Virus record (IMG/VR): IMGVR_UViG_3300032318_000833
Coordinates: 1-50,390 of that record
Source of the DNA: a virus
Lineage: Duplodnaviria; Caudoviricetes
Length of the DNA stretch: 50,390 nt
Strand: one strand, 5' to 3'
The notes under the pieces are model-generated. The model was not told the origin of the DNA. It did no database searches and saw only the letters and a list, made by a program, of their open reading frames with translations. Both the position numbers and the translations under genes were made by a program. Below are positions 9,455-27,535 of the stretch, piece by piece. Positions within the stretch are counted from its first letter, which is position 1. Each line of letters begins with the position of its first letter.

Positions 9455-9483
9455 TTGACCCTACAGCCTGAGCCTGCTAGACT
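9455..9483 (+). promoter_or_regulatory. sigma70/SigA-type early promoter
   Basis: TTGACC (9455-9460), 17-nt spacer, TAGACT (9478-9483), at the start of the plus-strand block. Confidence 0.8.
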
Positions 9484-9489
9484 CTACCC

Positions 9490-10100
9490 ATAAGTGAATA
9501 GGGGTGGGGTTGAGGTTAGGTAAGGCCGAAACCGCGAAGCCATAGGTGCTAATGCAACTCAATGAAGATGCGAAGGACGTTGGGGCCGGGAGTGGTTCGC
9601 AGTGGTCAAGACACTAGCAGGTCGGCAAGTACCGGGACTCCTCATAAGACTCCTCCCCGTTGATGTTTGAGAATTGAATAGAGATGGATGACCTGCCAAG
9701 GAGTAGGCCACGCGACGCATGATGCAAGAAGATGCGCGGCAATTGGTGTAAAGCGGTGATGCTTGGGATTGCCAATTGTTACGGGAGCGGAAACAAGAGG
9801 AGTACGCAGGGCGTGGTGAAACTGCCTAGATTGAAGCAACGCACGGTGCAAAGCACCTAAGCCATTAGTAACGTAGCGAATTGTTAGTGGCAGCCGTCTA
9901 GTAGTAGCCAAGTAGCGCTTAAAGCGCGGGAGTCTGGTGGGGCTAGATGGTGGAAGCGCAATGTGGATGTCGATGGGCTGTAGTCCCCAAAGTAAAAAGT
10001 ACCGGGGAGGCAAGGTTCCATATCAGCGATGTGCTGGGTATCGAGCATGAATGAGAGAGACGTTCCTTTAGTCATGCTTGGTGCGGAGGGCATCGCCTCC
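9490..10100 (+). ncRNA. large structured ncRNA (ROOL/GOLLD-like ornate phage RNA; family unconfirmed)
   Basis: About 600 nt with no credible ORF. Stems with G-U pairs: 9501-9510/9649-9658, 9617-9623/9690-9696, 9738-9746/9772-9780, 9845-9857, 9861-9891, 9893-9902/9942-9951, 9955-9967/10017-10035, 10038-10050/10072-10084, 10085-10100. Confidence 0.75.
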
Positions 10101-10120
10101 AATAACGAAAGGGCAACGTA

Positions 10121-10441
10121 ATGGCAAGCAACAAGAAGATGTGCGACATGTTTGTTGTCGGTTGGAACATGCCCGGCTACTTGCCGGAGTCAGAGCCAGA
10201 GCGATTCCTTACTTGGATTGACGCCAAGATGCACCTAGCGATAACGCTTGATGATTGGTGCGAGGACGATTTGCAGTCAGTCGGTTGGGCACCAGCAACC
10301 GAGCAAGACGTTATCGCTTCGCAAATAGTCGATCGTTACGCCGAAGTGATCGACGCTGTCATTGCTAGCGATGGTCCGTCCTTCGCTATGGAGATTGCCG
10401 AGCAAAACGTTGTTGTTTGGATTGCACAGGAGGTTAAGTGA
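10121..10441 (+). CDS. hypothetical early protein
   Basis: ORF with start motif GAAAGGGCAAC; VGWNMPGYLPESEP segment. Confidence 0.7.
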   Translation: MASNKKMCDMFVVGWNMPGYLPESEPERFLTWIDAKMHLAITLDDWCEDDLQSVGWAPATEQDVIASQIVDRYAEVIDAVIASDGPSFAMEIAEQNVVVWIAQEVK

Positions 10442-10674
10442 TGTATTGGCGCAAAGAGCGTGACGATTACGGACGCACGGTGCATGCTTTAAAAGCAGAC
10501 ACGGGACGCACGCTAGGGGTTGTCGTCAAGCACCCGCTATTGAAGAAGGGCGACCCGAACGCCTATTGGTACAACAGATGGGATGTGCCATTTGACACTC
10601 CCGTCGAAATCAAGATCAAGCACTTCACCAACCTCAAAGACGCTAAGACCGCTTTGGAAGGGGCAACAAAATGA
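10438..10674 (+). CDS. hypothetical early protein
   Basis: RBS AGGAGG; 4-nt overlaps with both neighbours. Confidence 0.65.
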   Translation: MMYWRKERDDYGRTVHALKADTGRTLGVVVKHPLLKKGDPNAYWYNRWDVPFDTPVEIKIKHFTNLKDAKTALEGATK

Positions 10675-11099
10675 AGGATGTAACAGAACGCACAGCGAAG
10701 TTCGAGTTCCGCGGCATTGAGTGCATTGCAAAAGTCACCTACACCGATTACCGCAAGAGCGATTGGGACCCACGGCAAATGAAATTCTTGCAGTTCCGTA
10801 AGGAGCAAGAGAAGAAGTCGCGTCTTTACTACGGTGAGGATGGAGTAATGGATAAGGCATATGGTGATCACCCGCCTTACTCCGTTAAGGGAGACGACCT
10901 TGCTAACGACAAAGCGTGGCGTAAATACAACAAGATGGAGTCCGATCTTGCGCGAGCAGCGATTGATGCTGTGTTCCCCGAGTTTGGGAAGTCGTTGTTC
11001 TCGCGTAAGGCTGGTTGCTCTTGCCCTTGCTCGCCCGGATTCATTAGCAAGTCGCTTGTTGGTGGACAGGGTTGGATTCGGGTGACGCTTGTTGAGTAG
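10671..11099 (+). CDS. hypothetical early protein (FSRKAGCSCPCSPGF motif)
   Basis: RBS GAAGGGGCAAC; Cys motif; stop codon abuts hammerhead 1. Confidence 0.7.
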   Translation: MKDVTERTAKFEFRGIECIAKVTYTDYRKSDWDPRQMKFLQFRKEQEKKSRLYYGEDGVMDKAYGDHPPYSVKGDDLANDKAWRKYNKMESDLARAAIDAVFPEFGKSLFSRKAGCSCPCSPGFISKSLVGGQGWIRVTLVE

Positions 11100-11160
11100 T
11101 CGAAACCGCCGTGAGGCGGTCGCGTGGAATTAGCCACCCACGCCTGATGAGACAGGCTTA
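11099..11160 (+). ncRNA. hammerhead ribozyme type II, copy 1
   Basis: GTC-GAAA-CCGCC(GTGA)GGCGG-TC^-GCGTGG(loop)CCACGC-CTGATGA-GAC. Loop AGCC pairs with 3' tail GGCT; predicted cut after 11121. Confidence 0.92.
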
Positions 11161-11176
11161 ACGAAAGGGCAACGTT

Positions 11177-11569
11177 ATGCAGTCAAAAGTGTATGACCTT
11201 GGCACCATCCGGCTTGACGATGTGGCGCTGATCATTTCAGATGAAGTGCGTTACTACGAGCGAGCAATGTCCTACACGCATTACATCATCGACGACGAGT
11301 GCGTGCGATTGATCAATTACAATCGCCGTCGCATGACACGGCATCGTCTTATCGCTGCCCGTAAAGTTCAAGAAGCGTTGAATGATCCCGAGTCGCAGTA
11401 CTACGACATGACGACGTTTGACGCAACGCGGCGTTTGGCAGAAGCAGCCGAGTGGTACGGGCGTTGCATCGAATTGGTAACGCACTTTGTCCATTTGGAT
11501 AGGGAAGCGACAATTGCAAACATCAAGTTGGAGAACGCTCGCCGTGAGGCAAGGGGTTACGAAGACTAG
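11177..11569 (+). CDS. hypothetical early protein flanked by two hammerheads
   Basis: Start motif GAAAGGGCAAC; 130-aa ORF. Confidence 0.7.
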   Translation: MQSKVYDLGTIRLDDVALIISDEVRYYERAMSYTHYIIDDECVRLINYNRRRMTRHRLIAARKVQEALNDPESQYYDMTTFDATRRLAEAAEWYGRCIELVTHFVHLDREATIANIKLENARREARGYED

Positions 11570-11575
11570 CCGTTA

Positions 11576-11634
11576 GTCGAAACGCCGTGAGGCGTCGCGT
11601 AGACCTGACCACCTACGCCTGATGAGACAGGTCA
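11576..11634 (+). ncRNA. hammerhead ribozyme type II, copy 2
   Basis: GTC-GAAA-CGCC(GTGA)GGCG-TC^-GCGTAG(loop)CTACGC-CTGATGA-GAC. Loop TGACC pairs with tail GGTCA; cut after 11596. Confidence 0.92.
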
Positions 11635-11653
11635 TAACAGAAAGGGCAACGTC

Positions 11654-11977
11654 ATGGCTAGAACTAAGAAGGTAACGCAGCGTCAGGCTGATCGCGTGCT
11701 TCGTGCTGTCGCTGATTGGATGTACCAGCAGAACGGTTACACGCAGCCAATCCCTACTGGTGAGGATGCCGCATACAAGGGGCTTGGTCCGATGCTCAAC
11801 ATGACTTGGGATTGGCCTTCGTCTAGCCCAACGCCCACCGTCTTGCTTGAGGGTGGGCCGGAGGAGTGGGCGGTTCGTTGCTGCCAGTACGTTCAAGAGT
11901 TGATGGACGCTCGCAAGATTCCCGTGTTCGTTGAGCCGTACGCATCGTATGCGCTTTGCATCTACAGGGAGGACTAA
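11654..11977 (+). CDS. hypothetical early protein
   Basis: Start motif GAAAGGGCAAC; 107-aa ORF. Confidence 0.7.
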   Translation: MARTKKVTQRQADRVLRAVADWMYQQNGYTQPIPTGEDAAYKGLGPMLNMTWDWPSSSPTPTVLLEGGPEEWAVRCCQYVQELMDARKIPVFVEPYASYALCIYRED

Positions 11978-11980
11978 GCA

Positions 11981-12196
11981 ATGGCAAAAGCATGGGACGT
12001 TGTCGCATACACCGCGGACGGAGATATCTATTGCCCACGTTGCGCCGTTGTGCGTTACAGCACTTGGATTGAGAAGACCGACGTTCCAGACCATGAGGGC
12101 AACAACATCATGGCGGTTTTTGCTTCCGATCCACATAAAGGTGAAACATGCGGGGGTTGTCTTGCCCCGATCTACATTAGCGAAAGGGTTAGGTGA
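11981..12196 (+). CDS. small Zn-binding hypothetical protein
   Basis: CPRC and CGGC pairs; RBS GGAGG. Confidence 0.65.
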   Translation: MAKAWDVVAYTADGDIYCPRCAVVRYSTWIEKTDVPDHEGNNIMAVFASDPHKGETCGGCLAPIYISERVR

Positions 12197-12459
12197 TCGT
12201 GATGGACCGTGTAATGACACCGCGCGTTGCAGGATTGATCGACGCAGCGAAAGACCTTGTTGTGCAGGCTATGTATGAGGGGTCGCACATTCAACGACAA
12301 GAACCTGCGCCAGTTGAGGGTACTCCTTGGGATCGTCCCGACTTGCCTAATGGTGCGTTGGTGATGTTGGTGAACATCCAACACGACCTAGAGGTTTTGC
12401 TTGCCACTCATTTTGCAGGCCAAACCCCGGAGCGTCCCGGTACTTGGGTCGCAACGTGA
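12193..12459 (+). CDS. hypothetical protein
   Basis: Overlapping start/stop with neighbours. Confidence 0.55.
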   Translation: MIVMDRVMTPRVAGLIDAAKDLVVQAMYEGSHIQRQEPAPVEGTPWDRPDLPNGALVMLVNIQHDLEVLLATHFAGQTPERPGTWVAT

Positions 12460-12614
12460 ACATCAACATTCGTTGGGTGCAATCGAAGCCTGAGGATTGG
12501 GTTGATTACCCAAGCGATTGCGCGAACTGCAATCGTCCAATGAACTGCCTTTACAAGCAAGAGAGTGGGGCTTACTTCTGCTCCACTTGCCATTACAAGA
12601 AGGAGGGGAAATGA
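12456..12614 (+). CDS. small Zn-finger-like protein (52 aa)
   Basis: Hand-translated MNINIRWVQSKPEDWVDYPSDCANCNRPMNCLYKQESGAYFCSTCHYKKEGK; GTGA and ATGA overlaps at the two ends. Confidence 0.6.
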   Translation: MNINIRWVQSKPEDWVDYPSDCANCNRPMNCLYKQESGAYFCSTCHYKKEGK

Positions 12615-12817
12615 ACATCAAGGAGATTGGCGTGGGTTTCTTTACACGCCCAACTATTGATTCATTGCGTGAGTTGCTTGATCGGCTTGAGCGTGAGGGT
12701 TGGAGCGCCGACCAACAAATCCAAGTGATCCAGTTGGGGAACAAGCCGGAAGCGTTTGTCATCCAGGCTGTTGAGGAGTGGCTTGGTTCAAGTGAGCCAC
12801 CCATTCGTCGCTACTAG
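12611..12817 (+). CDS. hypothetical protein
   Basis: RBS AAGGAGG, ATG 12611; stop abuts hammerhead 3. Confidence 0.6.
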   Translation: MNIKEIGVGFFTRPTIDSLRELLDRLEREGWSADQQIQVIQLGNKPEAFVIQAVEEWLGSSEPPIRRY

Positions 12818-12880
12818 TTCGAAACCTCGCTTCGGCGGGGTTGCATGGAATTGACCAACCATGCCTGACGAGATAGGTCA
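12817..12880 (+). ncRNA. hammerhead ribozyme type II, copy 3
   Basis: GAAA-CCTCGC(TTCG)GCGGGG-TT^-GCATGG(loop)CCATGC-CTGACGA-GAT. Loop TGACC pairs with tail GGTCA; GUU cleavage triplet, cut after 12842; stem II is weak. Confidence 0.82.
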
Positions 12881-12895
12881 TAGCGAAAGGGCAAT

Positions 12896-13186
12896 GTGAT
12901 GCTAGAAGAAAACAAGAAAGAACTGTACGCGTTAGTTCTTGCTCACATGGAACGTTACGGGCAAGACTTGACAGAGCATCGTATTTGGGATGCGCACGAT
13001 GGTCGCCCAGATGGAACGCTAGTCACCAACGACAACCTTCACCTTTTCCGTCAATTCCGTAACACCATCAGCAGTTCGCCTCGCGTCATGGTGCATGCCG
13101 CATTGGAATCAAGAAATCAATTCGATGCCGTGTTCCCCGATCCCAACATTACGCCATATGACATCCCGAAGAAGGTGGAGCGATGA
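12896..13186 (+). CDS. hypothetical protein
   Basis: Start motif GAAAGGGCAA. Confidence 0.6.
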   Translation: MMLEENKKELYALVLAHMERYGQDLTEHRIWDAHDGRPDGTLVTNDNLHLFRQFRNTISSSPRVMVHAALESRNQFDAVFPDPNITPYDIPKKVER

Positions 13187-13434
13187 ACGACGAGATTGTT
13201 AAGTACGACTTGACATTAGGTCGGCCTGTCAATGGCATTGAGATGATTGAGGTGCGACGTATCGCGCGACCATACATTGTTGACAAGGCAGGGCGTCGGC
13301 AATGGATGAAAGAACATTCGCAAGAGGACCGCGAGGTTCTAATGACAATCCCGTTCACCGACGTTCCTGCTTTGCTACAAGCAGTAGCGGAATGGGCGGC
13401 ATGGCATATGTCGCCTACTCCATTGAAGGATTGA
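13183..13434 (+). CDS. hypothetical protein
   Basis: ATGA overlap; RBS GGTGGAG. Confidence 0.6.
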   Translation: MNDEIVKYDLTLGRPVNGIEMIEVRRIARPYIVDKAGRRQWMKEHSQEDREVLMTIPFTDVPALLQAVAEWAAWHMSPTPLKD

Positions 13435-13436
13435 TG

Positions 13437-13649
13437 ATGATGATTGAGTTTCATTACGAAAATGATTATGGCGTCTCCGTTGTGTTCAAGTGGAATCGCA
13501 GCCAGACCATCAACCTCTACGTCAATGGTGTGGAGAGCGAGTCGTTCACGTTGCTCCATGCCGATGTGATGAAGGTGATGGAGTGGTGCGATGACATGGC
13601 AGACGATGTGATGACGCGGTTGGTCGATGAGTTGGGCGACCAAGCCTAG
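13437..13649 (+). CDS. hypothetical protein
   Basis: RBS GAAGGA; start among tandem ATGs at 13434-13440. Confidence 0.55.
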   Translation: MMIEFHYENDYGVSVVFKWNRSQTINLYVNGVESESFTLLHADVMKVMEWCDDMADDVMTRLVDELGDQA

Positions 13650-13702
13650 GAGGGGTCGTCCCCCATGGCGGTATGAGGTCATGGGGGATTCCCCCCTTGG
13701 GG

Positions 13703-13807
13703 CGATCTGGGCGATTCTGGGGGGTCAACATGGGGGGATGGGTACCATTATGGCCCCTATGGGGGTCTGCTCCCCCAACAACCCCCAGATTGCCCCTGAG
13801 GGGGAGG
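13703..13807. repeat. dispersed ~105-bp G-run element, copy A (intergenic)
   Basis: Shares CGATCTGGGCGATTCTGGGGG...ATGGGGG...GGGTACC...CTATGGGGG...CCCCCA...CAGAT[T/A]GCCCCTG with 19774-19877. Confidence 0.75.
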
Positions 13808-13950
13808 CCCATAGCCCGAATCATTTGGGGATGGGGTCCCGGCCCTATGGCCTTTGGTCGCTCAATTGCCGTGGCTATTGGCGTGGAATTGCTATTGGAC
13901 AACACACCAAATGCCATTGAGCGTACAGTCGTTGGCTGCTACTTTCTTGC

Positions 13951-14020
13951 TATCGAAACCTTGCCCATGCAATTGGGCGGGTCCATCGGGGATCGCCTCC
14001 CGATGCTGAGGAGATAGGCG
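13951..14020 (+). ncRNA. hammerhead ribozyme type II, copy 4
   Basis: TATC-GAAA-CCTTGCCCA(TGCAAT)TGGGCGGG-TC^-CATCGGG(loop)CCCGATG-CTGAGGA-GATA. Loop CGCC pairs with tail GGCG; cut after 13983. Confidence 0.88.
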
Positions 14021-14038
14021 GCAGAAGAAAGGGGCAAC

Positions 14039-14365
14039 ATGCCTTGGTTGAACAAGCGATTCGTAGATGACATCGCCGGAGAGGTCGATGCTCTACGATC
14101 CAGCGTTGATCCAGTAACAAAGCAGTTTGTTGAGGGGTATGACCGTGCAGTCGGCAACCCCGACTACTTCCGCTTTAGGGGTAGGGGTGAGCAGATTGAT
14201 CTCCCTATCGGTGAGGACGCCTACCCCTTGATGGAAAGTATCGCGCTTAACCGCGTGTCCTATTGGGATGACGCACTTGCTAGCGCACCCGACCCGATGC
14301 GCAAGGACATTTGCCGTCGGGGCATTAGGCGATCCAAGAAGGTAGCCGCACGATTCAAGAAGTGA
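14039..14365 (+). CDS. hypothetical protein
   Basis: Start motif GAAAGGGGCAAC. Confidence 0.65.
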   Translation: MPWLNKRFVDDIAGEVDALRSSVDPVTKQFVEGYDRAVGNPDYFRFRGRGEQIDLPIGEDAYPLMESIALNRVSYWDDALASAPDPMRKDICRRGIRRSKKVAARFKK

Positions 14366-14370
14366 CGTTG

Positions 14371-14408
14371 GGTGTAGGCCTTACCTCAATTGGGGTAGGG
14401 CTTACACC
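14371..14408 (+). other. 17-bp intergenic hairpin
   Basis: GGTGTAGGCCTTACCTC-AATT-GGGGTAGGGCTTACACC with three G-U pairs and no U-tail; lies just before the GAAAGGGCAA start motif. Confidence 0.65.
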
Positions 14409-14429
14409 GTCAATCGAAAGGGCAAGCAA

Positions 14430-14645
14430 ATGTCAATGGATATGGGGCACTACTACGACAACGAGACAGACCGCTGCATCGACTGTGATTGCAGGCCGTG
14501 GGGTCGTTGGGCAAAACTCCCGTGCGGGATTGACCCTAAGACGGTTGATATCTCGCAAGGCAACGTGCAGGCGCATAGCGATGAGTTCTTCAAGGGGTTC
14601 ATTGAGTACGCAATGATCAAGGCTGCGCTTGAGGGTGACAAGTGA
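14430..14645 (+). CDS. small Cys-containing hypothetical protein
   Basis: Start motif GAAAGGGCAA; CIDCDC...PCG. Confidence 0.6.
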   Translation: MSMDMGHYYDNETDRCIDCDCRPWGRWAKLPCGIDPKTVDISQGNVQAHSDEFFKGFIEYAMIKAALEGDK

Positions 14646-14688
14646 GGGCACGTTACGGTGACGCAATCGTTGATATCAAGGAGGAATC

Positions 14689-14793
14689 GTGAGACTCACA
14701 AAACGCGGAGAGATCGTTCTAGCCACCGTCGCAACAATCGTCCTACTCGCAATGATGGGAATTGCCGGATGGGTGGAAGGAGGAATGCAGTGA
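14689..14793 (+). CDS. small membrane peptide (34 aa)
   Basis: RBS AAGGAGG; MRLTKRGEIVLATVATIVLLAMMGIAGWVEGGMQ. Confidence 0.6.
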   Translation: MRLTKRGEIVLATVATIVLLAMMGIAGWVEGGMQ

Positions 14794-14849
14794 TTGATCC
14801 AGAAGACGATGACGACGATTACGGTGACGGCGTTGTTTACGTTTGACTA

Positions 14850-14905
14850 GGTCGAAACCCCGTGAGGGGTCCGGTACTGAATGGTGCCGCTGACGAGACC
14901 GTCAG
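14850..14905 (+). ncRNA. hammerhead ribozyme type II, copy 5
   Basis: GGTC-GAAA-CCCC(GTGA)GGGG-TC^-CGGTAC(TGAATG)GTGCCG-CTGACGA-GACC. CTGA can pair with tail TCAG; cut after 14871. Confidence 0.9.
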
Positions 14906-14923
14906 ATAACGAAAGGGTATGCA

Positions 14924-15925
14924 ATGCCAGCAGCAGTAGAAACATTCAAGGACGGGAGCGCAGCGTTCTTTTCCAACCGCGTTGCTCCGTGGCACGCACT
15001 CGGCACCATTACTGACGGGGCGCAGACCGCAGAGGATGCGTTGCGTCTAGCGCAGTTGGATTGGGAGGTCATTAAGAGCGACGATCCCGTACAGGTCCCC
15101 GTTCTTACGCCAAGCGGCGTGCAAAGCGTTACGGTGCCAGATAAGTTCATGACATATCGCAATCACCCGAAGTTGGGATTGCAGGGTCTTGGTGTTGTGG
15201 GTTCTCAATACACCGTGATCCAGAACAAGGAAGCGTTCGACTTCCTTAACGGGTTGGTTGATGAGGGTGGGGCTGTGTTTGAGACAGCCGGGTCAATCTT
15301 TGACGGGCGACAGGTCTTTATGTCCATGAAGTTGCCGAACACGATTGAGTTGGCTGGTGGTCAAGACACGCTAGACCTTTACCTCATTGCGACTACATCC
15401 CACGATGGGACCAAGGCGTTCACCGTCTACTTGTCCTACGTTCGCCCGGTGTGCGCTAACACCGTGCAATGGGGGTTGTCGTCGGCGGTAGACCGTTGGT
15501 ATCTCAAGCACACGACGGGCGTTACGGGCAAGGTTCATGTTGCTAGGGAAACGCTTGGTCTTGTGTTTAAGCACCAAGCCGATTTTGAGCGGGAAGTGCA
15601 GCGGCTTGTGTCCACGCCGATGACGAACAATGAGTTCGCCAAGTTCGTTGAGGTCATTGTGCCTTCGCCCAAGAGCCCGACGTTGCGGCAGGGAACGCGT
15701 ATTGACACCGTGCGGGGAGAGTTGATGGGGCTTTGGAACGCTCCCACACAAGAGCCTGTCAAGAACACACGTTACGCAGCGTTCAATGCGGTAACGGAGT
15801 GGGTTGATTGGGTCAAGCCTGTCAAGGCTAAGAAGAAGGAAGCAGACGTTGTGCGTGCGCAACGCGTTTTCATTCCTCGTAGTGATGCGCTTAAGAAGCG
15901 CGCCCTCATGCTGCTCGCTAAGTAG
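14924..15925 (+). CDS. DUF932/DUF945-family phage/plasmid protein (TIGR03299-like)
   Basis: PWHALG, ALRLAQLDWEV, LGVVGSQYTVIQNKEAF, FETAGS, SHDG, RPVCANT, KHT, AFNAVTEWVD motifs. Confidence 0.85.
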   Translation: MPAAVETFKDGSAAFFSNRVAPWHALGTITDGAQTAEDALRLAQLDWEVIKSDDPVQVPVLTPSGVQSVTVPDKFMTYRNHPKLGLQGLGVVGSQYTVIQNKEAFDFLNGLVDEGGAVFETAGSIFDGRQVFMSMKLPNTIELAGGQDTLDLYLIATTSHDGTKAFTVYLSYVRPVCANTVQWGLSSAVDRWYLKHTTGVTGKVHVARETLGLVFKHQADFEREVQRLVSTPMTNNEFAKFVEVIVPSPKSPTLRQGTRIDTVRGELMGLWNAPTQEPVKNTRYAAFNAVTEWVDWVKPVKAKKKEADVVRAQRVFIPRSDALKKRALMLLAK

Positions 15926-16006
15926 CGGGTGATCGAAGTGGGGCAGGGATAGTTGCCCGTCCCTGCCCTGCCTCGGCTAACCGCTAGCCGGGAAGGGGTA
16001 ATTGCA

Positions 16007-16817: not shown

Positions 16818-17008
16818 TGGTCGAGTATCTAACAGTCGGGGATGTGGCAGAGCGGCTTGGGGTTTCGCGTAGCACCATCACCGCGTACAAGGCAAGGAAG
16901 CAAATGCCTAAGCCTGATAAGCAGTACGGCAGGACCCCGCTATGGCGGGAATCAACAATCGAAAATTGGCGTAACACCAAGAAGGGGCAGTCAAATGAAA
17001 CTCACTAA
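16817..17008 (+). CDS. AlpA/excisionase-like HTH DNA-binding protein
   Basis: YLTVGDVAERLGVSRSTITAY...MPKPD..GRTPLWRESTIENW. Confidence 0.85.
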   Translation: MVEYLTVGDVAERLGVSRSTITAYKARKQMPKPDKQYGRTPLWRESTIENWRNTKKGQSNETH

Positions 17009-17711
17009 CGAGCAGTACGAGAAGTTGCTTCAACCGCTTGCCGCTAACCGCGTGGCTAGCCGTAAGCAAGCCGGAATGAACTTGTCTTACCTAGAGGCTT
17101 GGGATGTAAAGGCTCATCTCATTCGCATCTTTGGGTTCGGAGGTTGGTCGGCTGACGTTATCTCCGCTGACCTAGCGTTTGAGGATAAGGATGAGAAGGG
17201 TCGCTGGAACGTGGGCTACAAGGTCGTGATGCGTTTGCGCATCCACACTTATGACGACTTTCTTGGAGAACCAACGTTCACAGAGGCAGCGGTTGGGTCG
17301 TCTACGCAATCGTCAAGGGGTGACGCGCACGACATGGCAATAAAGACTGCGGAGTCGGATGCTCTTAAGAGGGCGGCGATTAACCTTGGTACACAGTTCG
17401 GCCTCAGTCTTTACGACAATGGCAACAAGCGGGATGTTGTCGGGTACACGATGGTGGAGCCGGAGGGCTACGAGCAGCCGACAACGACTAGCGTTGAGCC
17501 TGAGTCGCAGCCTTCCACCCCTGTGCCTAATGATCTTGTGGCTAAGGTGGCAGAAGCCACGGACAAGGTCGCGCTTAAGGCCATTTGGGATTTGTGCGTT
17601 GCTAACGGGTGGCTTGACCAATCGCTCGACGGTGCCGAGATCAGCATGCGTAACGTGATCATTGATCGACTTGCTGAGATCGAGCCCCTTGTAGAGGCAG
17701 TTGACGAGTGA
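16995..17711 (+). CDS. Rad52/Sak-like single-strand annealing protein
   Basis: LSYLEAWDVKAHLIRIFGFGGWS and HDMAIKTAESDALKRAAINLGTQFGLSLY are Rad52-family motifs; ATG 16995. Confidence 0.88.
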   Translation: MKLTNEQYEKLLQPLAANRVASRKQAGMNLSYLEAWDVKAHLIRIFGFGGWSADVISADLAFEDKDEKGRWNVGYKVVMRLRIHTYDDFLGEPTFTEAAVGSSTQSSRGDAHDMAIKTAESDALKRAAINLGTQFGLSLYDNGNKRDVVGYTMVEPEGYEQPTTTSVEPESQPSTPVPNDLVAKVAEATDKVALKAIWDLCVANGWLDQSLDGAEISMRNVIIDRLAEIEPLVEAVDE

Positions 17712-18070
17712 CTGTCATCACCCCGGCGCAAGTGGAGCAAAAACTTGTGCAACTCTCGCGGGAATACGACGAAGCGCACAAGGAATTGGAGGAAGCGGAA
17801 ATGGGTTACGCTTCTGCTAAGTCTTTGTGGGAAATCAATAGCGCAAGGGCGCGTCTTGGTATTGCTGCTCGCGCATTAGAGAACGGAAGGAAGATAACCG
17901 TTCAAGAGCGTGACGATGAGGCTCTAGTGCGTTGCCAAGACGAATTGGTTGCGCTCAACAATTCCGAAGCAATTGTGCGTGCGGCTCGCGCTAACGCTCA
18001 ACGGCTGCGCACGCAGATAGACATTGCTCGGAGCGTTGGCACAGCCGTTCGCGCGGCCTTGGAATTGTGA
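17708..18070 (+). CDS. coiled-coil hypothetical protein
   Basis: Helical ORF; GTGA overlap. Confidence 0.65.
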   Translation: MTVITPAQVEQKLVQLSREYDEAHKELEEAEMGYASAKSLWEINSARARLGIAARALENGRKITVQERDDEALVRCQDELVALNNSEAIVRAARANAQRLRTQIDIARSVGTAVRAALEL

Positions 18071-18150
18071 TGGGCGATATTGCTGACATTGTCGTCACAT
18101 TGTTTGCATTAGGTATCGGTTATTGGCTCGGCTACACAAGTGAGAAATAA
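18070..18150 (+). CDS. possible 26-aa membrane micropeptide
   Basis: MGDIADIVVTLFALGIGYWLGYTSEK fills the gap, with TGATG coupling. Confidence 0.35.
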   Translation: MGDIADIVVTLFALGIGYWLGYTSEK

Positions 18151-18170
18151 AAACTAGCGAAGGGGCAGCA

Positions 18171-18827
18171 ATGCAGAAAGAATACTTCTTGTCTTTGCTT
18201 AATAAGCAAAAGAGGAGCAAGCGATCTAAGCAAAAGCGTATCGGGCCTAGCGAGATCGGCGGTTGCTCGCGCCGCCTATGGCATCGACTAAATGATACGC
18301 CAGAGACCAACCCCGACACGTTGGTCATGGCTGCTTGGATGGGTACTGCGATTCACACCGCGCTTGAGAACAGCATTCGGCGTGACGACCCATTTGGTGA
18401 TCGGTACTTGCTAGAGCAACGATTGGAGTGGGAGGAGTTCAAGGGCCAGGTGGATTGCTTCGACAAGGAAGACCTTGAGGTTATCGACTGGAAGACAACG
18501 TCCAAGCGTAACCTCTCCGACTTCCCTAATGAGAAGCACATTGCTCAGGTCAATATGTACGGGTTCTTGCTAGAGAAGCATGGGCTTGAGGTCAAGAATG
18601 TGACGTTAGTTGGTATCCCGCGTGATGGGCATGAGACTGACGTTGTGTGGCATACAGAAGCCTACAATCGTGACGCAGCGTTGGAGTCGATAGCGCACGC
18701 TCGCAACGTGGCCTCGATGGTTGAGCCTCCCGCGCCCGAAATGTACAAGCGGTTTTGCCAAATGTTTTGCCCGTACTATGACGCGACTGAGCAAGTGGGT
18801 TGCCCTGGTAGAACGGGTCGATCATGA
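18171..18827 (+). CDS. Cas4/RecB-like PD-(D/E)XK exonuclease
   Basis: IGPSEIGGCSRR, GTAIH, GQVD, VIDWKT, QVNMY and C-terminal CQMFCPY..C. Confidence 0.85.
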   Translation: MQKEYFLSLLNKQKRSKRSKQKRIGPSEIGGCSRRLWHRLNDTPETNPDTLVMAAWMGTAIHTALENSIRRDDPFGDRYLLEQRLEWEEFKGQVDCFDKEDLEVIDWKTTSKRNLSDFPNEKHIAQVNMYGFLLEKHGLEVKNVTLVGIPRDGHETDVVWHTEAYNRDAALESIAHARNVASMVEPPAPEMYKRFCQMFCPYYDATEQVGCPGRTGRS

Positions 18828-19270: not shown

Positions 19271-20257
19271 ATGACCGAGGATAGCAGAGTGGTCGCCGAA
19301 AGGGGACCTTTTGAGATGGTTCCGCATTGGTTGTTGCACGACCTAGAAGTAAATGCGCTAGCCATTCGGCTGTACCTAGTGTTACGTCAACATGCTAATG
19401 CTCAAGGTACTTGTTTCCCCAGTCGGCAACGCCTATGCGATTTGCTTGGCGTTTCGTTACCGACATTGGATAAAGCCCGTGAGCAATTGGTTCACGCCGG
19501 AGCATTGACGATACGCAAGAGAAAGGATGCTGCAAACCAATGGGCGTCGTCGTTGTATGTCGTACATTGGGAGAAGCAAGATTTTTATGCACGGGCTACC
19601 AAGTTTTTTGATGAGGGTCATCAAGAATCTTCTATACGAACTAATACCCACTTAACTAAGACAAGTACTACTACTCCACTACAGCAAACTAATTTGCCTA
19701 CCGCTCCGGATGGGGCCAATGGTGTCGATTCCCACCCCGGCATGGGGGGCAAGGGGGACCTATGCCCCAGGCCCGATCTGGGCGATTCTGGGGGACCAGA
19801 TATGGGGGAGGGTACCCATGGGGGGACTATGGGGGACCGACCCCCCAGCGGCCTTCAGATAGCCCCTGGGAGGGGGGTCGATATCCCCGATTCCCCGATC
19901 AACCCGACCCAAAAGGGGAGGCAAGGATGGACCGTAAATGGCACTCACCCCGCATCATTTGATGACTTTTGGCGTGCGTATCCACGGCGAGCAGGCAAGA
20001 AGGCTGCGCTACAAGCGTGGCTTGCTGCGATCCGTGAAGCCGATGCAGATTGCATCGTGGAAGCCGCAAGACGTTACTCAAATGATCCGAATAGAGAACC
20101 ACGATTCACACCGCATCCCGCTACTTGGCTACGTCAAGGACGTTGGGATGATGAACCATTACCCTCGCGTTCGACTGGCGCAGCAGGCCAGCGACGAATG
20201 GACGCGTATCAAGATATCTATAACAAGATCAATCAACGAAAGGGCATCGAACAATGA
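19271..20257 (+). CDS. replication initiator (N-terminal HTH, phage O/Rep-like)
   Basis: LYLVLRQHA...CFPSRQRLCDLLGVS HTH; C-terminal FDDFWRAYPRRAGKKAA...HPATWLRQGRWDDE; low-complexity linker. Confidence 0.8.
   Translation: MTEDSRVVAERGPFEMVPHWLLHDLEVNALAIRLYLVLRQHANAQGTCFPSRQRLCDLLGVSLPTLDKAREQLVHAGALTIRKRKDAANQWASSLYVVHWEKQDFYARATKFFDEGHQESSIRTNTHLTKTSTTTPLQQTNLPTAPDGANGVDSHPGMGGKGDLCPRPDLGDSGGPDMGEGTHGGTMGDRPPSGLQIAPGRGVDIPDSPINPTQKGRQGWTVNGTHPASFDDFWRAYPRRAGKKAALQAWLAAIREADADCIVEAARRYSNDPNREPRFTPHPATWLRQGRWDDEPLPSRSTGAAGQRRMDAYQDIYNKINQRKGIEQ
19774..19877. repeat. dispersed G-run element, copy B (inside initiator gene; candidate origin)
   Basis: Homologous to 13703-13807; ATGGGGG occurs four times in 19742-19835. 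Confidence 0.7.
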
Positions 20258-22191: not shown

Positions 22192-22442
22192 TGAATAATG
22201 AGTTTCCTACGCATGTGTTCGTGGCACCGGCTAATTACACGCCGGAACCGACTATTGCCGTAACGCCAACGATTGTTGACCAGATGGATAGCATCGAGGT
22301 CGCTGCTTACCTTGGTATCACGACCAACAACCTTCGACAGATGGTCTTCAAGAAGAAGTTGCTTCCGTCAGGCAAGAACGGGCGACGGCTTGTGTTCAAT
22401 AAGTCTGACGTTATTGCATTTGCGGAGGGCAGGAATAAGTGA
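22191..22442 (+). CDS. HTH DNA-binding protein
   Basis: EVAAYLGITTNNLRQMV...GRRLVFNKSDV. Confidence 0.75.
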   Translation: MNNEFPTHVFVAPANYTPEPTIAVTPTIVDQMDSIEVAAYLGITTNNLRQMVFKKKLLPSGKNGRRLVFNKSDVIAFAEGRNK

Positions 22443-23053
22443 GCGACGCGCTAAAGATCGAAAAGGTTAAGTGCGCTGCCCTAAAGACTGACCCGCAAAA
22501 CGCTCGCAAGCATTCGGAGCGTAACATCAAGGTAATTGCTAGCAGCCTTGCATCGTTCGGGCAGCGACGACCCCTTGTCGTTTGGAACGACACCATTATC
22601 GCGGGTAATGGAACACTAGAGGCAGCACAGTCACTTGGCTGGACGGACGTTTTCATTACGCGCGTCCCCGCCGATTGGACAGAAGATCAAGCCCGAGCAT
22701 TTGCGCTTGCCGATAATCGATCATCCGAACTTGGGGATTGGGATTCCGAACTCCTTGCTAGCCAGTTGATCGCTCTTAACGACACAGGTTTCGAGATTGA
22801 AGACATTGGCTTCTCCCTTGACCTTGACAATGATGACTACAACCCTTCCGGCTTCCTTGACGACATTGATCCTGGGGTTCCAAAGACTGACTCCGACTTC
22901 GGGGATAAGGACAAGTATTCGCTTCCGTACGGTTTTGATTCTGACCAACGCGAAGTAATCATTGCGGCGATCAATCATGCAAAGAAGTTGTATTCGATTG
23001 AGGCTCCGCAAGCCCTAACGCATATCGCTAAGTGCTACTTGGATTCTCCGTAG
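22439..23053 (+). CDS. ParB/Srx-like N-terminal domain protein
   Basis: DPQNARKH, SLASFGQRRPLVV, IIAGNGTLEAA, ALADNRSSEL. Confidence 0.85.
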   Translation: MSDALKIEKVKCAALKTDPQNARKHSERNIKVIASSLASFGQRRPLVVWNDTIIAGNGTLEAAQSLGWTDVFITRVPADWTEDQARAFALADNRSSELGDWDSELLASQLIALNDTGFEIEDIGFSLDLDNDDYNPSGFLDDIDPGVPKTDSDFGDKDKYSLPYGFDSDQREVIIAAINHAKKLYSIEAPQALTHIAKCYLDSP

Positions 23054-23074
23054 TAGGAAGGAGCCGAAGCCTCA

Positions 23075-24316
23075 ATGGGAAAGATGATTCGCAAGAAAAA
23101 AGAAGTAGACCGTAACGTTTACGAAATGGCTAAAGAGCGAGTAGCGCACGCGTTCGACATTTTCGATGAGATCGTAGTGTCATTCTCAGGCGGTAAAGAC
23201 TCAACTACCGTTTTGGAACTTGTGCTTGAAGAAGCAGAGAAGCGTGATCGTCTACCGCAACGCGTGGTCTTTTTCGATGAGGAAGCGATCCCTTGGCAAA
23301 CGGTCGAATACGTTGAGCGACGTAGGCAAGATCCGCGTATCAAACTAGAGTGGTACTGCGTATCCTTGCCATGTCGTAACGCTTGTGCGCGGGATGAGTC
23401 ATATTGGTACCCATGGAATCCTGACGAGAAGGACAAATGGGTTCGACCATTGCCGGAGCATGCAATCACTTCGCATCCGTTGATTGACGATTTGCCGTTA
23501 GAGAAGCGTCCCGGTTGGGCAACATTTGCAGACTTCCTTGGTAACGGAAAAGGATCAACGGCATTTGCGCTTGGTATCCGCGCTGATGAGTCGCTTGGTC
23601 GATACATGCAAGTGGCTAAGCGAGAGAAAGATAATTGGATCATCAACCTTCGGCCCGGCGTAGCCAAGGTTCTTCCGATCTATGACTTCCGCACCGAAGA
23701 TGTGTGGACTGCGCCTGCCATGTTTGGTTGGGATTACAATCGCGCCTACGACATTCTTGAAATGCTCGGCATTAGCCCGTCGCAACAGCGTTGCGCCCCG
23801 CCATACGGCGAGGAGCCGATGCAGAAACTTTGGGTGTTTCGTGAGGGATTCCCTGAGATTTGGGACAAGATGGTTTACCGCGTTCCCGGCGCAGCAACAG
23901 CGGCGCGTTACTCCAATACAGAGTTGTATGCGTTCAATGATCGCCTTGAGAAGCCTGTCGATATCTCGTGGAAGGACTACATCTACGAGTTGGCTGGCGG
24001 GTTGGAGGAAAAGTCTCGCGGTAAGGCTATCTACACAATTCGCACCATGATTAATGGTCACTACAAGGCTGTATCTACTCCGATCATGGAAGATAGCGCG
24101 CACCCTCGCGGCGGCGTGACTTGGCAAATCATTGGGAAGATCGCCATGCGAGGAGACGACAAGGGAAGGAAAGCGCAAATGGCGCGGCACTTCTCCGACC
24201 CAAGCAAGCCAGACTTTGAGCCAATGCTCAAGAAGTACAACAATGAACTAGACAATGTGACCAGGGCTGGACGGCTTTGGGAGTTTGAGTTGGAGAATAA
24301 TAATGGGGAAGCCTGA
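23075..24316 (+). CDS. PAPS-reductase-family protein (IbrA/YbdN, DUF3440-like)
   Basis: PP-loop VSFSGGKDS, FFDEE, GIRADES, PIYDF..EDVW, YNRAYD, QRCAPPYG. Confidence 0.88.
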   Translation: MGKMIRKKKEVDRNVYEMAKERVAHAFDIFDEIVVSFSGGKDSTTVLELVLEEAEKRDRLPQRVVFFDEEAIPWQTVEYVERRRQDPRIKLEWYCVSLPCRNACARDESYWYPWNPDEKDKWVRPLPEHAITSHPLIDDLPLEKRPGWATFADFLGNGKGSTAFALGIRADESLGRYMQVAKREKDNWIINLRPGVAKVLPIYDFRTEDVWTAPAMFGWDYNRAYDILEMLGISPSQQRCAPPYGEEPMQKLWVFREGFPEIWDKMVYRVPGAATAARYSNTELYAFNDRLEKPVDISWKDYIYELAGGLEEKSRGKAIYTIRTMINGHYKAVSTPIMEDSAHPRGGVTWQIIGKIAMRGDDKGRKAQMARHFSDPSKPDFEPMLKKYNNELDNVTRAGRLWEFELENNNGEA

Positions 24317-24812
24317 CGATCATCCTTTGTCTAAAGTTGAATGGGTTGATCCAAAAAAGTTGAGGGCAAATAACTACAATCCGAACAAGGTCGCACCGCC
24401 CGAAATGAAATTGCTCAAGTTGAGCATTATGGAAAACGGTTGGACGCAGCCAATTGTGGCGCACCCGGACGGCGAGATCGTTGACGGGTTCCATCGTTGG
24501 ACACTAGCGTCGCAGGATAAGCAAGTTGCTGCGCTCGCTGGTGGGCTTTGCCCCGTAGTGCGATTGAAGATTAACGAGAGCGATTCGCGTCTTGCGACAA
24601 TTCGCCACAATCGCGCACGCGGCTCGCATTACGTCGTTCAAATGTCCAATATTGTTATTGATCTTTTGGAGGCTGGACTGTCGGAAGATGAAATCAGCAA
24701 GCGACTTGGCATGGAACCTGAGGAGGTTCTGCGCCTAAAGATGCGAGGAGATTCCATTGCGCGCAAAGCCAAGAAAGACTTCAACAACGGCTGGGTACCT
24801 GGGGATAAGTAA
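24303..24812 (+). CDS. ParB-like protein (IbrB/YbdM-like)
   Basis: ANNYNPNKVAPPEMKLLKLSI..GWTQPIV, IVDGFHR, TIRHNRARG. Confidence 0.88.
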   Translation: MGKPDDHPLSKVEWVDPKKLRANNYNPNKVAPPEMKLLKLSIMENGWTQPIVAHPDGEIVDGFHRWTLASQDKQVAALAGGLCPVVRLKINESDSRLATIRHNRARGSHYVVQMSNIVIDLLEAGLSEDEISKRLGMEPEEVLRLKMRGDSIARKAKKDFNNGWVPGDK

Positions 24813-25284
24813 GGCTCTTGTTCTTGTGACAGCCTTTGTCCTGGCTTCCCTAACGGGGGTTCATTCCCCTGCTTCCGCTGGGGAGTGTCGAACCGTGAAG
24901 ATTCTTCACAATGCTGGTTTCACGGGAAACAAATTGCAAATTGCATACGGGATCGTGATGCGAGAGAGCAAGGGACAAAACCTGTCCGAAAGTAGTCCAT
25001 GGTTCAGCGGAGCGTTAGGTTACTGGCAAGTGCAAACGTCAGCGCACTCGCATAACAAGTGGTGGTCTCGCGCCGCGATGCTCAATCCGTTACGGCAAAG
25101 CCAAATTGTCTACAAGTACATGAGCAAGAAGGGGACGTATTGGCGACCGTGGGGATTGAGCGGCGACGGTAAATCAATGGACACAACCCAATACGGTGCA
25201 TGGTCAGGTTGGCAGCATTACAATTGGATTTGGTTGCCTTACATTCGTTACTACAATTCTTTCCCGAAGTGCAAACTAACTTAA
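24757..25284 (+). CDS. secreted lytic-transglycosylase-like protein (start uncertain)
   Basis: Hydrophobic signal-like segment, then IAYGIVMRESKG...GYWQV...NP...WRPW (lysozyme-fold motifs). Confidence 0.65.
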   Translation: MRAKPRKTSTTAGYLGISKALVLVTAFVLASLTGVHSPASAGECRTVKILHNAGFTGNKLQIAYGIVMRESKGQNLSESSPWFSGALGYWQVQTSAHSHNKWWSRAAMLNPLRQSQIVYKYMSKKGTYWRPWGLSGDGKSMDTTQYGAWSGWQHYNWIWLPYIRYYNSFPKCKLT

Positions 25285-25296
25285 TAAGGAGTAGCA

Positions 25297-25737
25297 ATGC
25301 CTGACGTTAGCAACAACGAAAACTCACTCATCATCACGAACATCTTTGAGTTGCAACATAAGATTCTTGATGAGGGCGTTCAGGTTTGGGGTGCCCCAGC
25401 AATTGGCGTCCCGCTTCACACTAACGGTAACCTTGGCGTTGATTTACTCCGAGTCGAAGCCGGGGACTCATTCCCGATTCACACGCATCCTGGCGATCAT
25501 CTTTTGCTTTGCGTCGCAGGGACAGGATCAATCTCAATTGGGCGACGTACCTACGAGGTAAAGCCCGGCGATCTTTACATGGTGCCCGGACTGATCCCGC
25601 ATGCTGTTGGCGCAGGCGATAATGAGTTCCATGTGCTTGCGGCTTTCGGTTCTCCGCATAAGCCCGTCGCGTCGCCCGAGCGTATGACGCTCGTTGATTG
25701 GGACGGTAGCGTCGTTTCCTCTGCGAAGTTTGCTTAG
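25297..25737 (+). CDS. cupin-domain protein
   Basis: HTHPGDH...GTG...PGDLYMVPGLIPHAV cupin motifs. Confidence 0.85.
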   Translation: MPDVSNNENSLIITNIFELQHKILDEGVQVWGAPAIGVPLHTNGNLGVDLLRVEAGDSFPIHTHPGDHLLLCVAGTGSISIGRRTYEVKPGDLYMVPGLIPHAVGAGDNEFHVLAAFGSPHKPVASPERMTLVDWDGSVVSSAKFA

Positions 25738-25738
25738 C

Positions 25739-27052
25739 ATGGGTACGCTCTACAATCCGCGTACGGGTAAGCCTCGCGGGGAAAGCTATGAAACTTCATC
25801 CGTTGAGTTGGGTGACGCAATTAGTAGAGCAAGAAATGCGGCTAAGACTTGGGCTGAAAAAACCCCAGCGGAAAGGGCGTTGGCTCTAACGCATTTCACG
25901 CAAGCCTTGTACGTTAAGCGCGGGGTTCTTGCCGACCTTGAGTGTCTTGGCACTGGGAAGCCGAGGTCGCAGGCGCTTGCGGAAGTAGAAGGTGCTATTG
26001 ACGTTATTCGATTCTATGCGGGTGCTGCTCGCGTTGCCACTGCGCCTTCCGCTGGCAAATACATAGACGGTTACTTCTCATCTGTTGTGTTGGAGCCACT
26101 TGGCACAATCGGTGTTATCTTGCCGTGGAACTATCCAATGATGATGCTTGCTTGGCGTCTTGGCCCGATCCTTGCGGTTGGTAATACTGCCGTTGTGAAG
26201 CCTGCTTATGAGACTCCCGAAACCGCTGTTGAGGTTGCGCGCGTGGCTCGTTGCTATCTCGGAGAGGGAATCGTTGAGGTTGTTCCCGGCAGCGATTCCG
26301 TTGGTAAAAGACTTGCAGTGACTCGCGCATTAGACGGGTTGGCTTTCACAGGTTCTGTTTCCGCAGGGTATTCGGTTGCTGCGGCAGCTGGTATCAAGCC
26401 AGTATCACTTGAGTTGGGTGGTAACGGCGCGGCTGTCGTTTTGCCCGACGCCCCACTAGATACAGCGCGCATCCTTGTAGATGCATCTACATACAACGCT
26501 GGACAATCGTGCGCCTCTCCCGCAAGAGTTATTGTTGTTGGGAAGCAAGCTGACTTTGTAAATGCGTTGGCTAGAGAAGCGCAATCTCGTAACGCTACAG
26601 ATTTTGGTCCGTTGATTTCAAGTGAAGCACTCAATCGTGTTCGCTCAATGGTTGCTAATACAGAGTATTCGATTGGGGCTAGGGGCGCTGCGCCTACTGA
26701 TGGGTACTACTTCCCGGCGACGGTGTTGATTGATGCTGTTGGGGAAGCGGTGGAGAAGGAAGTGTTCGGACCAGTTCTAACGGTTGAGCGAGTCGATACC
26801 GTTGATGATGCTATTGAGAAAGCCAACTCCATGCCGCAAGCATTGGGTTGTTCAATTCACACTTCAAGCCATACGTCAGCATTGACTTTGGCTCCGAAGA
26901 TTAACGGTGGCGAGGTTTGGGTGAATTGCCACCTAGTTCAATCGCCCGAATTGCCGCACTCTGGAAGGGGATCTAGTGGGCAAGGGATTGACCTTTCAAT
27001 GGATGCGCTACGCGACTTCACGCGTCCAAAGACCATCACATCACGGCTCTAG
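25739..27052 (+). CDS. NAD(P)-dependent aldehyde dehydrogenase
   Basis: NPRTG, PWNYP, KPA.ETP, FTGS, LELGG (catalytic Glu), NAGQSC (catalytic Cys), EVFGPV. Confidence 0.92.
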   Translation: MGTLYNPRTGKPRGESYETSSVELGDAISRARNAAKTWAEKTPAERALALTHFTQALYVKRGVLADLECLGTGKPRSQALAEVEGAIDVIRFYAGAARVATAPSAGKYIDGYFSSVVLEPLGTIGVILPWNYPMMMLAWRLGPILAVGNTAVVKPAYETPETAVEVARVARCYLGEGIVEVVPGSDSVGKRLAVTRALDGLAFTGSVSAGYSVAAAAGIKPVSLELGGNGAAVVLPDAPLDTARILVDASTYNAGQSCASPARVIVVGKQADFVNALAREAQSRNATDFGPLISSEALNRVRSMVANTEYSIGARGAAPTDGYYFPATVLIDAVGEAVEKEVFGPVLTVERVDTVDDAIEKANSMPQALGCSIHTSSHTSALTLAPKINGGEVWVNCHLVQSPELPHSGRGSSGQGIDLSMDALRDFTRPKTITSRL

Positions 27053-27086
27053 GAACGCCATAGTTTTAGACAATTACAACAGCCCA

Positions 27087-27495: not shown

Positions 27496-27535
27496 ATCAA
27501 GTACGCTTACCAAAACTATTTAGGAGTTAGAGGTC

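Follow-up and report, generated by a model that had tools for sequence, protein, structure and literature searches.

What would an array of self-cleaving RNAs do between the genes of a phage early arm: cut the message into separately expressed mRNAs, supply circular RNAs, or serve as joints at which genes are exchanged? The question is raised by positions 9455-15990 of IMG/VR record IMGVR_UViG_3300032318_000833. The whole viral record, analyzed here over its full 50,390 bases and called the window below, comes from an uncultured phage, is ∼85% complete, and carries head, tail, terminase, and replication genes. The arm in question, which is likely an early gene arm, diverges from the tail genes and runs into genes for a Rad52-like annealing protein, a Cas4-like exonuclease, and a replication initiator. 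From a WhiB gene, the GenBank matches of a DUF932 protein, and the variant of a boxA-like word, the host is predicted to be probably a member of the Actinomycetota. An earlier note on this DNA had described the arm as one transcription unit with a promoter, a giant noncoding RNA (ncRNA), and ribozyme-delimited gene cassettes. Our reading, which we regard as probable, is that five hammerhead ribozymes fused to ribosome-binding sites (RBSs) would yield linear, hairpin-capped mRNAs, that a boxA-bearing leader would provide read-through, and that genes would be exchanged by DNA recombination at the repeats, all within the early arm of an actinobacterial phage.

Five type II hammerheads are joined to a shared start motif

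A descriptor search identified five type II hammerheads, all on the plus strand (HH1 to HH5, with cut positions in Table 1), against a chance expectation of 0.01 matches per dinucleotide shuffle (100 shuffles). The same search found no further type II hammerhead in the window, and no type I or III motifs were found. The self-cleaving motifs and cut positions given in the earlier note were therefore borne out, with cleavage itself predicted, and its coordinates for the inter-ribozyme fragments are correct: 11122-11596 (475 nt, one open reading frame [ORF]), 11597-12842, 12843-13983, and 13984-14871.

All five copies have the core CUGANGA and GAAA with an NUH triplet, which is GUC in four and GUU in one. 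Loops close stems I and III, stem II is open (2-5 bp), and a pseudoknot of 4-6 bp, different in sequence from copy to copy, joins loop I to the 3′ tail in each. The Rfam model Hammerhead_II (RF02276) scored 37 bits at 11098-11161, equal to its gathering score of 37, and 30.6 bits at 13951-14023; at an E value of 10 these two of the five hammerheads were listed and the other three were not, and one of the five reached the gathering score. The copies are 67-73% alike over 55 nt. Retention of the core, the three stems, and the pseudoknot in all five copies despite divergent sequences points to selection on the fold. HH3, with its GUU triplet and a stem II of 2 bp, is likely the weakest of the five, judging from the generally known order of triplet rates.

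In four of the five cases the hammerhead starts at the upstream stop codon or at most 9 nt from it, and GAAAGGG with a start codon lies within ∼30 nt 3′ of every hammerhead, so that the order stop codon, ribozyme, RBS, start is constant. GAAAGGG, proposed earlier as a shared start motif, was confirmed at seven sites in the arm (10107, 11163, 11640, 12885, 14027, 14416, and 14911), with two more outside it. In foldings that took no account of pseudoknots, the predicted accessibility of the RBS rose upon cleavage from 0.03 to 0.62 at HH1 and from 0.16 to 0.43 at HH4, and little at the other three.

Type II hammerheads were also seen elsewhere. A loose pattern matches ∼1,800 stored viral stretches, as extrapolated from 5 of 64 parts, and the unrelated viral contigs L094, L098, L046/L047, and L100 have 8, 9, 6, and 5 copies, respectively, in one arm. 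In the low-GC phages L007 (1851-3800), L005, and L009, a type II hammerhead, in some cases with a very long stem III, lies up to ∼900 nt upstream of DUF932.

Predicted consequences for the early message

Our reading starts from what is observed, namely the motifs, the gene-order differences among relatives, the kinship of the leaders, and the boxA-like word. Cleavage in the cell is predicted from the motifs. The five hammerheads would cut the early message into linear, hairpin-capped, gene-sized mRNAs, and each product would carry a 5′-OH and the stem I hairpin at its start and the stem III hairpin and a cyclic phosphate at its end. Ends of these kinds should resist 5′-monophosphate-dependent and 3′ exonucleases, and each cassette would consequently have its own half-life and its own translation rate. 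Two promoters would feed the array, and HH4 would trim the second transcript at its 5′ end. The 620-base leader with its boxA-like word would recruit host Nus factors, upon which the polymerase continues, and the Rad52-like annealing protein would drive exchange at the 12-20-nt shared ends of the repeats. Clustered hammerheads flanking phage genes have been found to cleave in vitro and in Escherichia coli (PMC3088659). The suggestion in the earlier note that the fragments become stabilized, gene-sized mRNAs is plausible and matches the published reading of such arrays (PMC3088659), but its circular form is unsupported, as set out below.

The leader probably belongs with shorter leaders of related phages

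The earlier note had placed a giant ncRNA at 9490-10106. This interval is noncoding on the plus strand, where its longest stop-free stretch is 45 codons, and a 123-aa minus-strand ORF across it has no family; its folding, however, is only modestly better than that of shuffles (z of −1.55, and −1.86 for the second domain, which 5 of 100 shuffles equaled). The leader matched no Rfam family. The GOLLD model (RF02032) gave no candidate in it at an E value of 10, with controls weakly detected (5 of 14), and the ROOL model (RF03087) gave no match by cmscan or in a second search, in which the controls were silent too.

Relatives with syntenic arms were gathered by using DUF932 and the neighboring tail protein as queries; L215, L220, and L221, which matched in part or at the edge of the locus, did not enter the comparison of leaders and hammerheads. 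Eight hammerheads each are present in L170, L175, L178, and L179, six in L258, and one or two in L184-L187, and none were found in 31 more distant loci, many of them too short to tell. A leader of 230-320 nt occupies the same place in 14 related contigs, and a hammerhead follows it directly, with no ORF between, in all 13 contigs that are long enough. The expected co-occurrence of ncRNA and hammerheads therefore holds for a shorter, related leader in these 13 contigs but not for four close relatives, L184-L187, which have hammerheads without a leader.

Domain 1 of the relatives' leader covaries. Across six related sequences, double changes were found in 8 of 24 pairs, a level reached by none of 500 shuffles, and slid controls were far lower. 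Insertions and deletions among these leaders correspond to whole hairpins. The relatives' leader has no Rfam match either. We note that the covarying RNA of 230-320 nt is found in L170 (9250-9505, minus strand), L175, L176, L180, L222, and L258, and that, judged by eye, its 5′ and 3′ ends are able to pair, two types differing there by a compensatory change.

The leader of this phage is likely kin to these RNAs, with a common fold established for the 9740-9778 module. This module, with compensatory changes in its stem, occurred in 5.4 Mb only in this phage, L176, and L222, and in none of 1000 shuffles. With gap costs chosen by the analyst, the leader as a whole was collinear with that of L222 (z of 4.0, 0 of 300 shuffles) and with that of L258 (z of 2.9), and the other five of the seven gave z below 1.2. 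Beyond the clade, blastn against GenBank phages returned only a 27-nt match (E of 0.7), three exact-pattern scans of viral contigs and a pattern scan of 401 actinobacterial genomes found no homolog, and nhmmer over 250 loci gave nothing below an E value of 1.9. No description of the leader was found in the literature searched, which includes few subscription papers. A gut-phage locus (L088) was considered as a relative and rejected, the layout being similar and the sequence unrelated (z of 0.6); this low-GC locus has, at about 2050-2600, a promoter, a hairpin, a boxA-like word, ∼390 noncoding nt, and genes parted by two hammerheads, with no Rfam match.

These data also bear on the strongest alternative, which we consider possible but clearly less probable than the reading above. 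It takes the leader for a structured RNA in its own right, from a new phage family, that acts after transcription; in relatives the first hammerhead would free it as an RNA of 260-330 nt, and boxA would only secure the longer version, as it does for rRNA. The hammerhead directly behind the relatives' leaders, the covariation in their domain 1, the exchange of whole hairpins, and the compensatory changes in the 9740-9778 module are what this alternative leads one to expect. In the present phage, however, the array would leave a first fragment of 1.6 kb with three ORFs, the leaders vary widely in length and sequence within one clade and are missing from four close relatives, and the searches outside the clade found no homolog. 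A bolder form is more tentative still: the leader would be the largest member of an undescribed structured phage RNA family, rRNA-like through a captured host boxA, released by hammerheads in most relatives, and acting as an RNA-only processivity or anti-host factor. It would head an integron-like, ribozyme-indexed cassette array in which the repeat makes an incoming gene a separately expressed unit.

The boxA-like word resembles a motif upstream of 16S rRNA

The word at 9660-9681 is identical at 16 of 18 positions to a motif upstream of Actinomycetota 16S rRNA and at 18 of 21 to a longer form. The reference for the 16 of 18 was the commonest form among 122 genome matches, nearly all of them actinobacterial among the 80 titles shown. 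Where at least 300 nt followed the match, 16S rRNA started 109-396 nt downstream in 48 of 57 cases, and small-subunit rRNA was present in 18 of 20 loci tested. In the window the word has one match at up to 3 mismatches, where 0.02 are expected. By eye, 9660-9672 matches 10 of 13 positions of the Bacillus subtilis boxA consensus (PMC13753749). B. subtilis boxA binds NusB and stands after a 5′ helix (PMC13753749), and boxA increases transcription through long untranslated CRISPR arrays (PMC7862264). By analogy of sequence and position, the word is likely to load host Nus factors so that the polymerase reads on.

We call the word boxA-like, a name that draws on position and likeness. No paper naming the actinobacterial word as boxA was found in the literature searched; a search for the word itself gave only unrelated papers among the matches listed, and boxA was absent from the actinophage antitermination papers among the matches listed.

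In all six high-GC viral loci with the word (L279, L283, L293, L299, L301, and L305), it stands before 132-442 nt without an ORF, once with a tRNA (tRNA-Lys in L279). Several others of these six loci have T-loop-like hairpins not called by ARAGORN. An apparent association of the word with hammerheads (9 of 125 loci, against 0 on the other strand) was rejected, as four of the five inspected lay in one coding sequence and only L088 was a leader.

Gene exchange maps mostly near, not at, the cut sites

We compared gene content among the relatives. Single-gene units are gained, lost, and reordered, and the number of ribozyme copies ranges from 1 to 8 within the clade. Most ends of homology segments lie between +38 and +60 relative to the cut, in the RBS, or between −20 and −35, on the stop-codon side. 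In the four closest genomes, stem I, which is the ribozyme part 3′ of the cut, tracks the upstream gene, with 17 of 17 pairs at an identity of at least 0.77, compared with 4 of 13 pairs that share the downstream gene. These joints are thus not at the cut site, where moving cleaved RNA fragments would put them. Two points of the earlier note need to be qualified accordingly: the ribozyme-RBS repeats do coincide with gene gain, loss, and reordering, as expected of recombination joints, but the joints lie mainly in the RBS tail or on the stop-codon side and the excess of breaks is small; and gene content does change near the repeats, but not exactly at the ribozyme boundaries in the sense of the cut. 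The Rad52-like protein and the exonuclease, both encoded just downstream, are candidate machinery for exchange at short repeats.

It might be argued that the repeat persists chiefly as a recombination joint or as a selfish spreader, with cleavage tolerated rather than selected. The movement of whole units and the range of copy numbers agree with this, as does the precedent of the PeSL repeats of T4-type phages, which drive shuffling and DNA mini-circles (PMC2839356). We nevertheless consider it unlikely, since the fold is kept with different sequences, the diverged stems reduce the usable homology, in relatives two inserts bring along the RBS copy alone, and breaks are only slightly in excess of those at ordinary junctions.

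Circular RNAs are not supported

Hammerhead cleavage leaves 5′-OH and 2′,3′-cyclic phosphate ends, which are the substrates of RtcB. Host RtcB, or reverse cleavage, might accordingly join the ends of the inter-ribozyme fragments, with circular mRNAs as the working form, and every fragment does have complete ORFs with an RBS. Searches of five phage genomes, of which two are at least 90% complete, found neither RtcB (PF01139) nor RNA ligase (PF09414), and controls were detected; host RtcB could still supply the activity, and RtcB occurs in a control actinobacterium. Once ligated, the fragments would re-form a full hammerhead, with a stem II of 3, 2, 5, and 3 bp and the pseudoknot intact, although in circular foldings the junction stem I was only partly formed (P of 0.16-0.52). 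Stem II pairs better within each ribozyme than across a circle junction, with means of 3.5 and 2.2 bp (own pairing better in 24 cases, worse in 6, and equal in 7), for 101 distinct neighbor pairs of which 37 differed, in a search that required at least 2 bp of own pairing. The HH3-HH4 junction (12843-13983) is the reverse case, with 5 bp against the 2 bp of HH3 itself, but the second promoter P2 and the element at 13650-13850 make that fragment doubtful. Perreault et al. raised circles as an option, and their search for circular or spliced products in three clusters turned up none (PMC3088659). Given the lack of a phage ligase in the genomes searched, the rebuilt hammerheads, and the published clusters, we consider circular mRNAs made through RtcB, as proposed in the earlier note, very unlikely.

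Results that weigh against the proposed reading

Several results count against the reading of linear mRNAs, boxA-assisted read-through, and DNA exchange at the repeats. With respect to exchange, L258 shows the opposite linkage, of stem I with the downstream gene, and with L258 included the test of upstream linkage was not significant (27 vs 23 pairs, p of 0.19). Broken adjacencies were only modestly in excess at ribozyme junctions (68 of 96) compared with other gene junctions (30 of 54), and the adjacency pairs are not independent. With respect to read-through, the boxA-like word was missing from all four related genomes searched, two of which have the leader together with 8 or at least 2 ribozymes. 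The word is therefore not needed for the array, and its absence fits an arrival together with the longer leader. As for the kinship of the leaders, a covariance model of domain 1 built from the relatives found the right place in this phage but with an E value of 6.7, and the corresponding model of domain 2 gave no match at this leader. Finally, the promoter pattern shared by P1 and P2, which recurs once in the window beyond P1, at 13917 (P2), and has no match in 100 shuffles, was written after both sites had been seen; nine matches in five related loci lend it independent support.

Promoters, hairpins, and gene content of the arm

The promoter reported at 9455-9483 (P1) was found, and its palindromic spacer motif recurs in the same register in the promoters of L182-L187. 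The predicted start of P2 falls within the first bases of HH4, which would therefore serve to trim a 5′ end and not to close a fragment. The arm is thus probably more than one transcript. The claim of a single transcription unit could not be confirmed, as P2 stands just before HH4 and 13703-13817 copies DNA of the replication-initiator gene.

This copy is 74% identical over 116 nt to 19774-19887, inside that gene (E of 3e-14). The G/C-run element at 13650-13850 has two 12-mers in common with the DNA upstream of P1, a match seen in none of 988 other windows, and in two of the four relatives checked a 22-nt stretch of the G/C-run region upstream of the promoter recurs, as a weak match (E of 0.03), in the initiator gene. 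Judged by these repeats, the element is likely a DNA element and perhaps origin-like. The G/C-run stretch at 19690-19900 lies in a linker of the initiator protein that does not align with the relatives' proteins and is itself a possible origin. Seven ORFs that lie across the leader and the gap at 13650-13950 were compared with PHROGs, without a match. The earlier note had proposed two further long hairpins. Hairpins fold at 13650-13850, 14371-14408, and 15925-15995, of which the first is the copy of initiator-gene DNA. In folding models, the hairpin behind DUF932 is a possible terminator, and that at 14371-14408 is a candidate for a processing, stabilizing, or terminating role.

TABLE 1. Features of the early arm and its downstream flank, by position in the window
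Feature	Position	Strand	Remarks
Main promoter P1	9455-9483	+	TTGACC-17-TAGACT, extended −10; operator-like palindrome in spacer
Untranslated leader	9490-10106	+	∼620 nt, two domains; likely a long relative of the 230-320-nt leaders in related phages
boxA-like word	9660-9681	+	Directly 3′ of first closed domain, 170 nt after predicted start
Hairpin module	9740-9778	+	4-bp stem, GGTGAT loop, GGGA; common to L176 and L222 leaders
Start motif and three coupled ORFs	10107-11099	+	106, 78, 142 aa; leader and first gene not separated by a ribozyme
HH1 and RBS tail	11099-11176	+	GUC; predicted cut after 11121
ORF, single-gene cassette	11177-11569	+	130 aa; homologs 54-64% identical in L176, L178, L184, L222
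HH2 and RBS tail	11576-11653	+	GUC; predicted cut after 11596
Five ORFs	11654-12817	+	107, 71, 88, 52, 68 aa; last one has homologs in relatives' arrays
HH3 and RBS tail	12819-12895	+	GUU, 2-bp stem II; predicted cut after 12842
Three ORFs	12896-13649	+	96, 83, 72 aa; no family
G/C-run palindromic element	13650-13850		Folds with z of −3.3
Predicted second promoter P2	13917-13945	+	TTGAGC-17-TACTTT; same pattern and register as P1
HH4 and RBS tail	13950-14038	+	GUC; predicted cut after 13983
ORFs	14039-14846	+	108, 71, 16, 34, 18 aa; 34-aa ORF conserved in relatives
Hairpin, 17 bp	14371-14408	+	Between stop codon and start motif, no U tract; z of −8.0
HH5 and RBS tail	14850-14923	+	GUC; predicted cut after 14871
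DUF932/TIGR03299 protein	14924-15925	+	333 aa
Long hairpin 3′ of DUF932	15923-15986	+	No U tract; z of −3.6 for 15925-15995
Rad52-like annealing protein and Cas4-like exonuclease	16995-18827	+	Both kept in 7 of 7 relatives checked

Some further observations concern these elements. Over 16 nt, positions 9518-9533 in leader domain 1 are 88% complementary to 14371-14386, which form the 5′ arm of the strong hairpin that lies 4.8 kb downstream; this may be chance. A word resembling AACT(A/G/T)AATA stands at the predicted leader start (9490) and also between genes at 35853 and 44636 (both minus strand), there probably just 3′ of promoters. The early arms of the close relatives L184 (2577-9338), L185, and L187 are made up of promoter cassettes that repeat in either orientation, each having a palindromic operator between −35 and −10, and contain only 1-2 hammerheads.

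The arm was said to hold more than 15 small genes, and we counted 18 ORFs in 10121-15925, two of them shorter than 20 aa. Relatives of the ORF at 10121-10441 are encoded on short contigs. Scans of 15 arm proteins against PHROGs and Pfam and of 16 against NCBIfam and PADLOC gave DUF932/TIGR03299 as the sole named family; three proteins matched PHROGs of unknown function, and none of the 16 matched PADLOC. A role of these proteins in host takeover or anti-defense, suggested in the earlier note, is neither favored nor contradicted by these scans. The ESM Atlas offered no usable family for two cassette proteins. In GenBank, the DUF932 protein best matches actinophage proteins (36-40% identity), and DUF932 in L001-L004 is likewise preceded by a type II hammerhead; DUF932 is not mentioned in PMC5512222.

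Elsewhere in the window there are no tRNA genes, and a PHROG label of RNA ligase at 38356-40026 was rejected as a ligase, since the label covers an XkdF protease stretch. Two regions, 22439-32756 and 45448-48396, encode ParB-like proteins, a PAPS-reductase-like protein with DUF3440, a cupin, an aldehyde dehydrogenase, two sugar epimerases, and three glycosyltransferases, with a possible role in DNA or surface modification.

Comparison with known systems

What self-cleaving ribozymes do in bacteria and phages is still called largely elusive (PMC6765202). Perreault et al. (2011, PMC3088659) described prophage genes, single or in blocks, that are flanked by several hammerheads, showed cleavage for three clusters, and proposed processing to gene-length mRNAs. 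The present array resembles these clusters in its type II permutation, in the loop I/3′-tail pseudoknot, and in having copies that flank genes or short blocks of variable identity, and it is a clean case of a layout in print since 2011. It differs from the tested three-copy clusters in having five copies, with eight in relatives, and a long structured leader in front. Fusion to the RBS and recombination at the repeat had no matches in the main text of that paper.

In its cassette organization, the arm resembles the PeSL cassettes of T4-type phages (Arbiol et al. 2010, PMC2839356), in which a short repeat stands between small nonessential genes and gene content changes there. PeSLs are promoter-terminator units for which DNA mini-circles were shown (PMC2839356), whereas the unit here is a ribozyme with an RBS. 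By this analogy, PeSL shuffling is the closest precedent for exchange at repeats. Retrozymes and viroid-like circular RNAs (PMC6765202) share with it tandem hammerheads that would excise a unit with ligatable ends, but theirs are near-identical flanking repeats whose circle replicates or transposes, while the ribozymes here differ and lie on one strand; nothing here points to an RNA step in mobility.

With respect to the leader, GOLLD and ROOL (PMC12286853; RF02032, RF03087) are likewise phage-encoded, ORF-free RNAs of several hundred nucleotides. They are often near tRNA islands, in contrast to this leader, as there are no tRNA genes in the window. This leader has been found in a narrow clade, varies in length, and runs into an RBS. 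As in the boxA of rrn leaders, which acts with NusB:S10 (PMC13753749), and in pre-CRISPR boxA (PMC7862264), the word stands behind a closed 5′ helix and before several hundred untranslated bases. Unlike rrn boxA, it precedes a phage mRNA arm, no long leader-trailer helix was found in the fold, and the word is missing in relatives.

Taken together, the array will not surprise specialists; the leader family and the boxA-like word are of more note, if moderately. The clade forms a natural comparison set, with 1 to 8 ribozymes, with and without the structured leader, with and without boxA, and with mapped gene exchanges. This makes it possible to relate cleavage to cassette-specific mRNA levels and the repeat to the speed of gene capture, and to address the role of the leader RNA. 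Set against the systems above, what is new is a leader family at the level of a clade, its enlarged, boxA-bearing form, and gene-exchange joints that map off the cut site.

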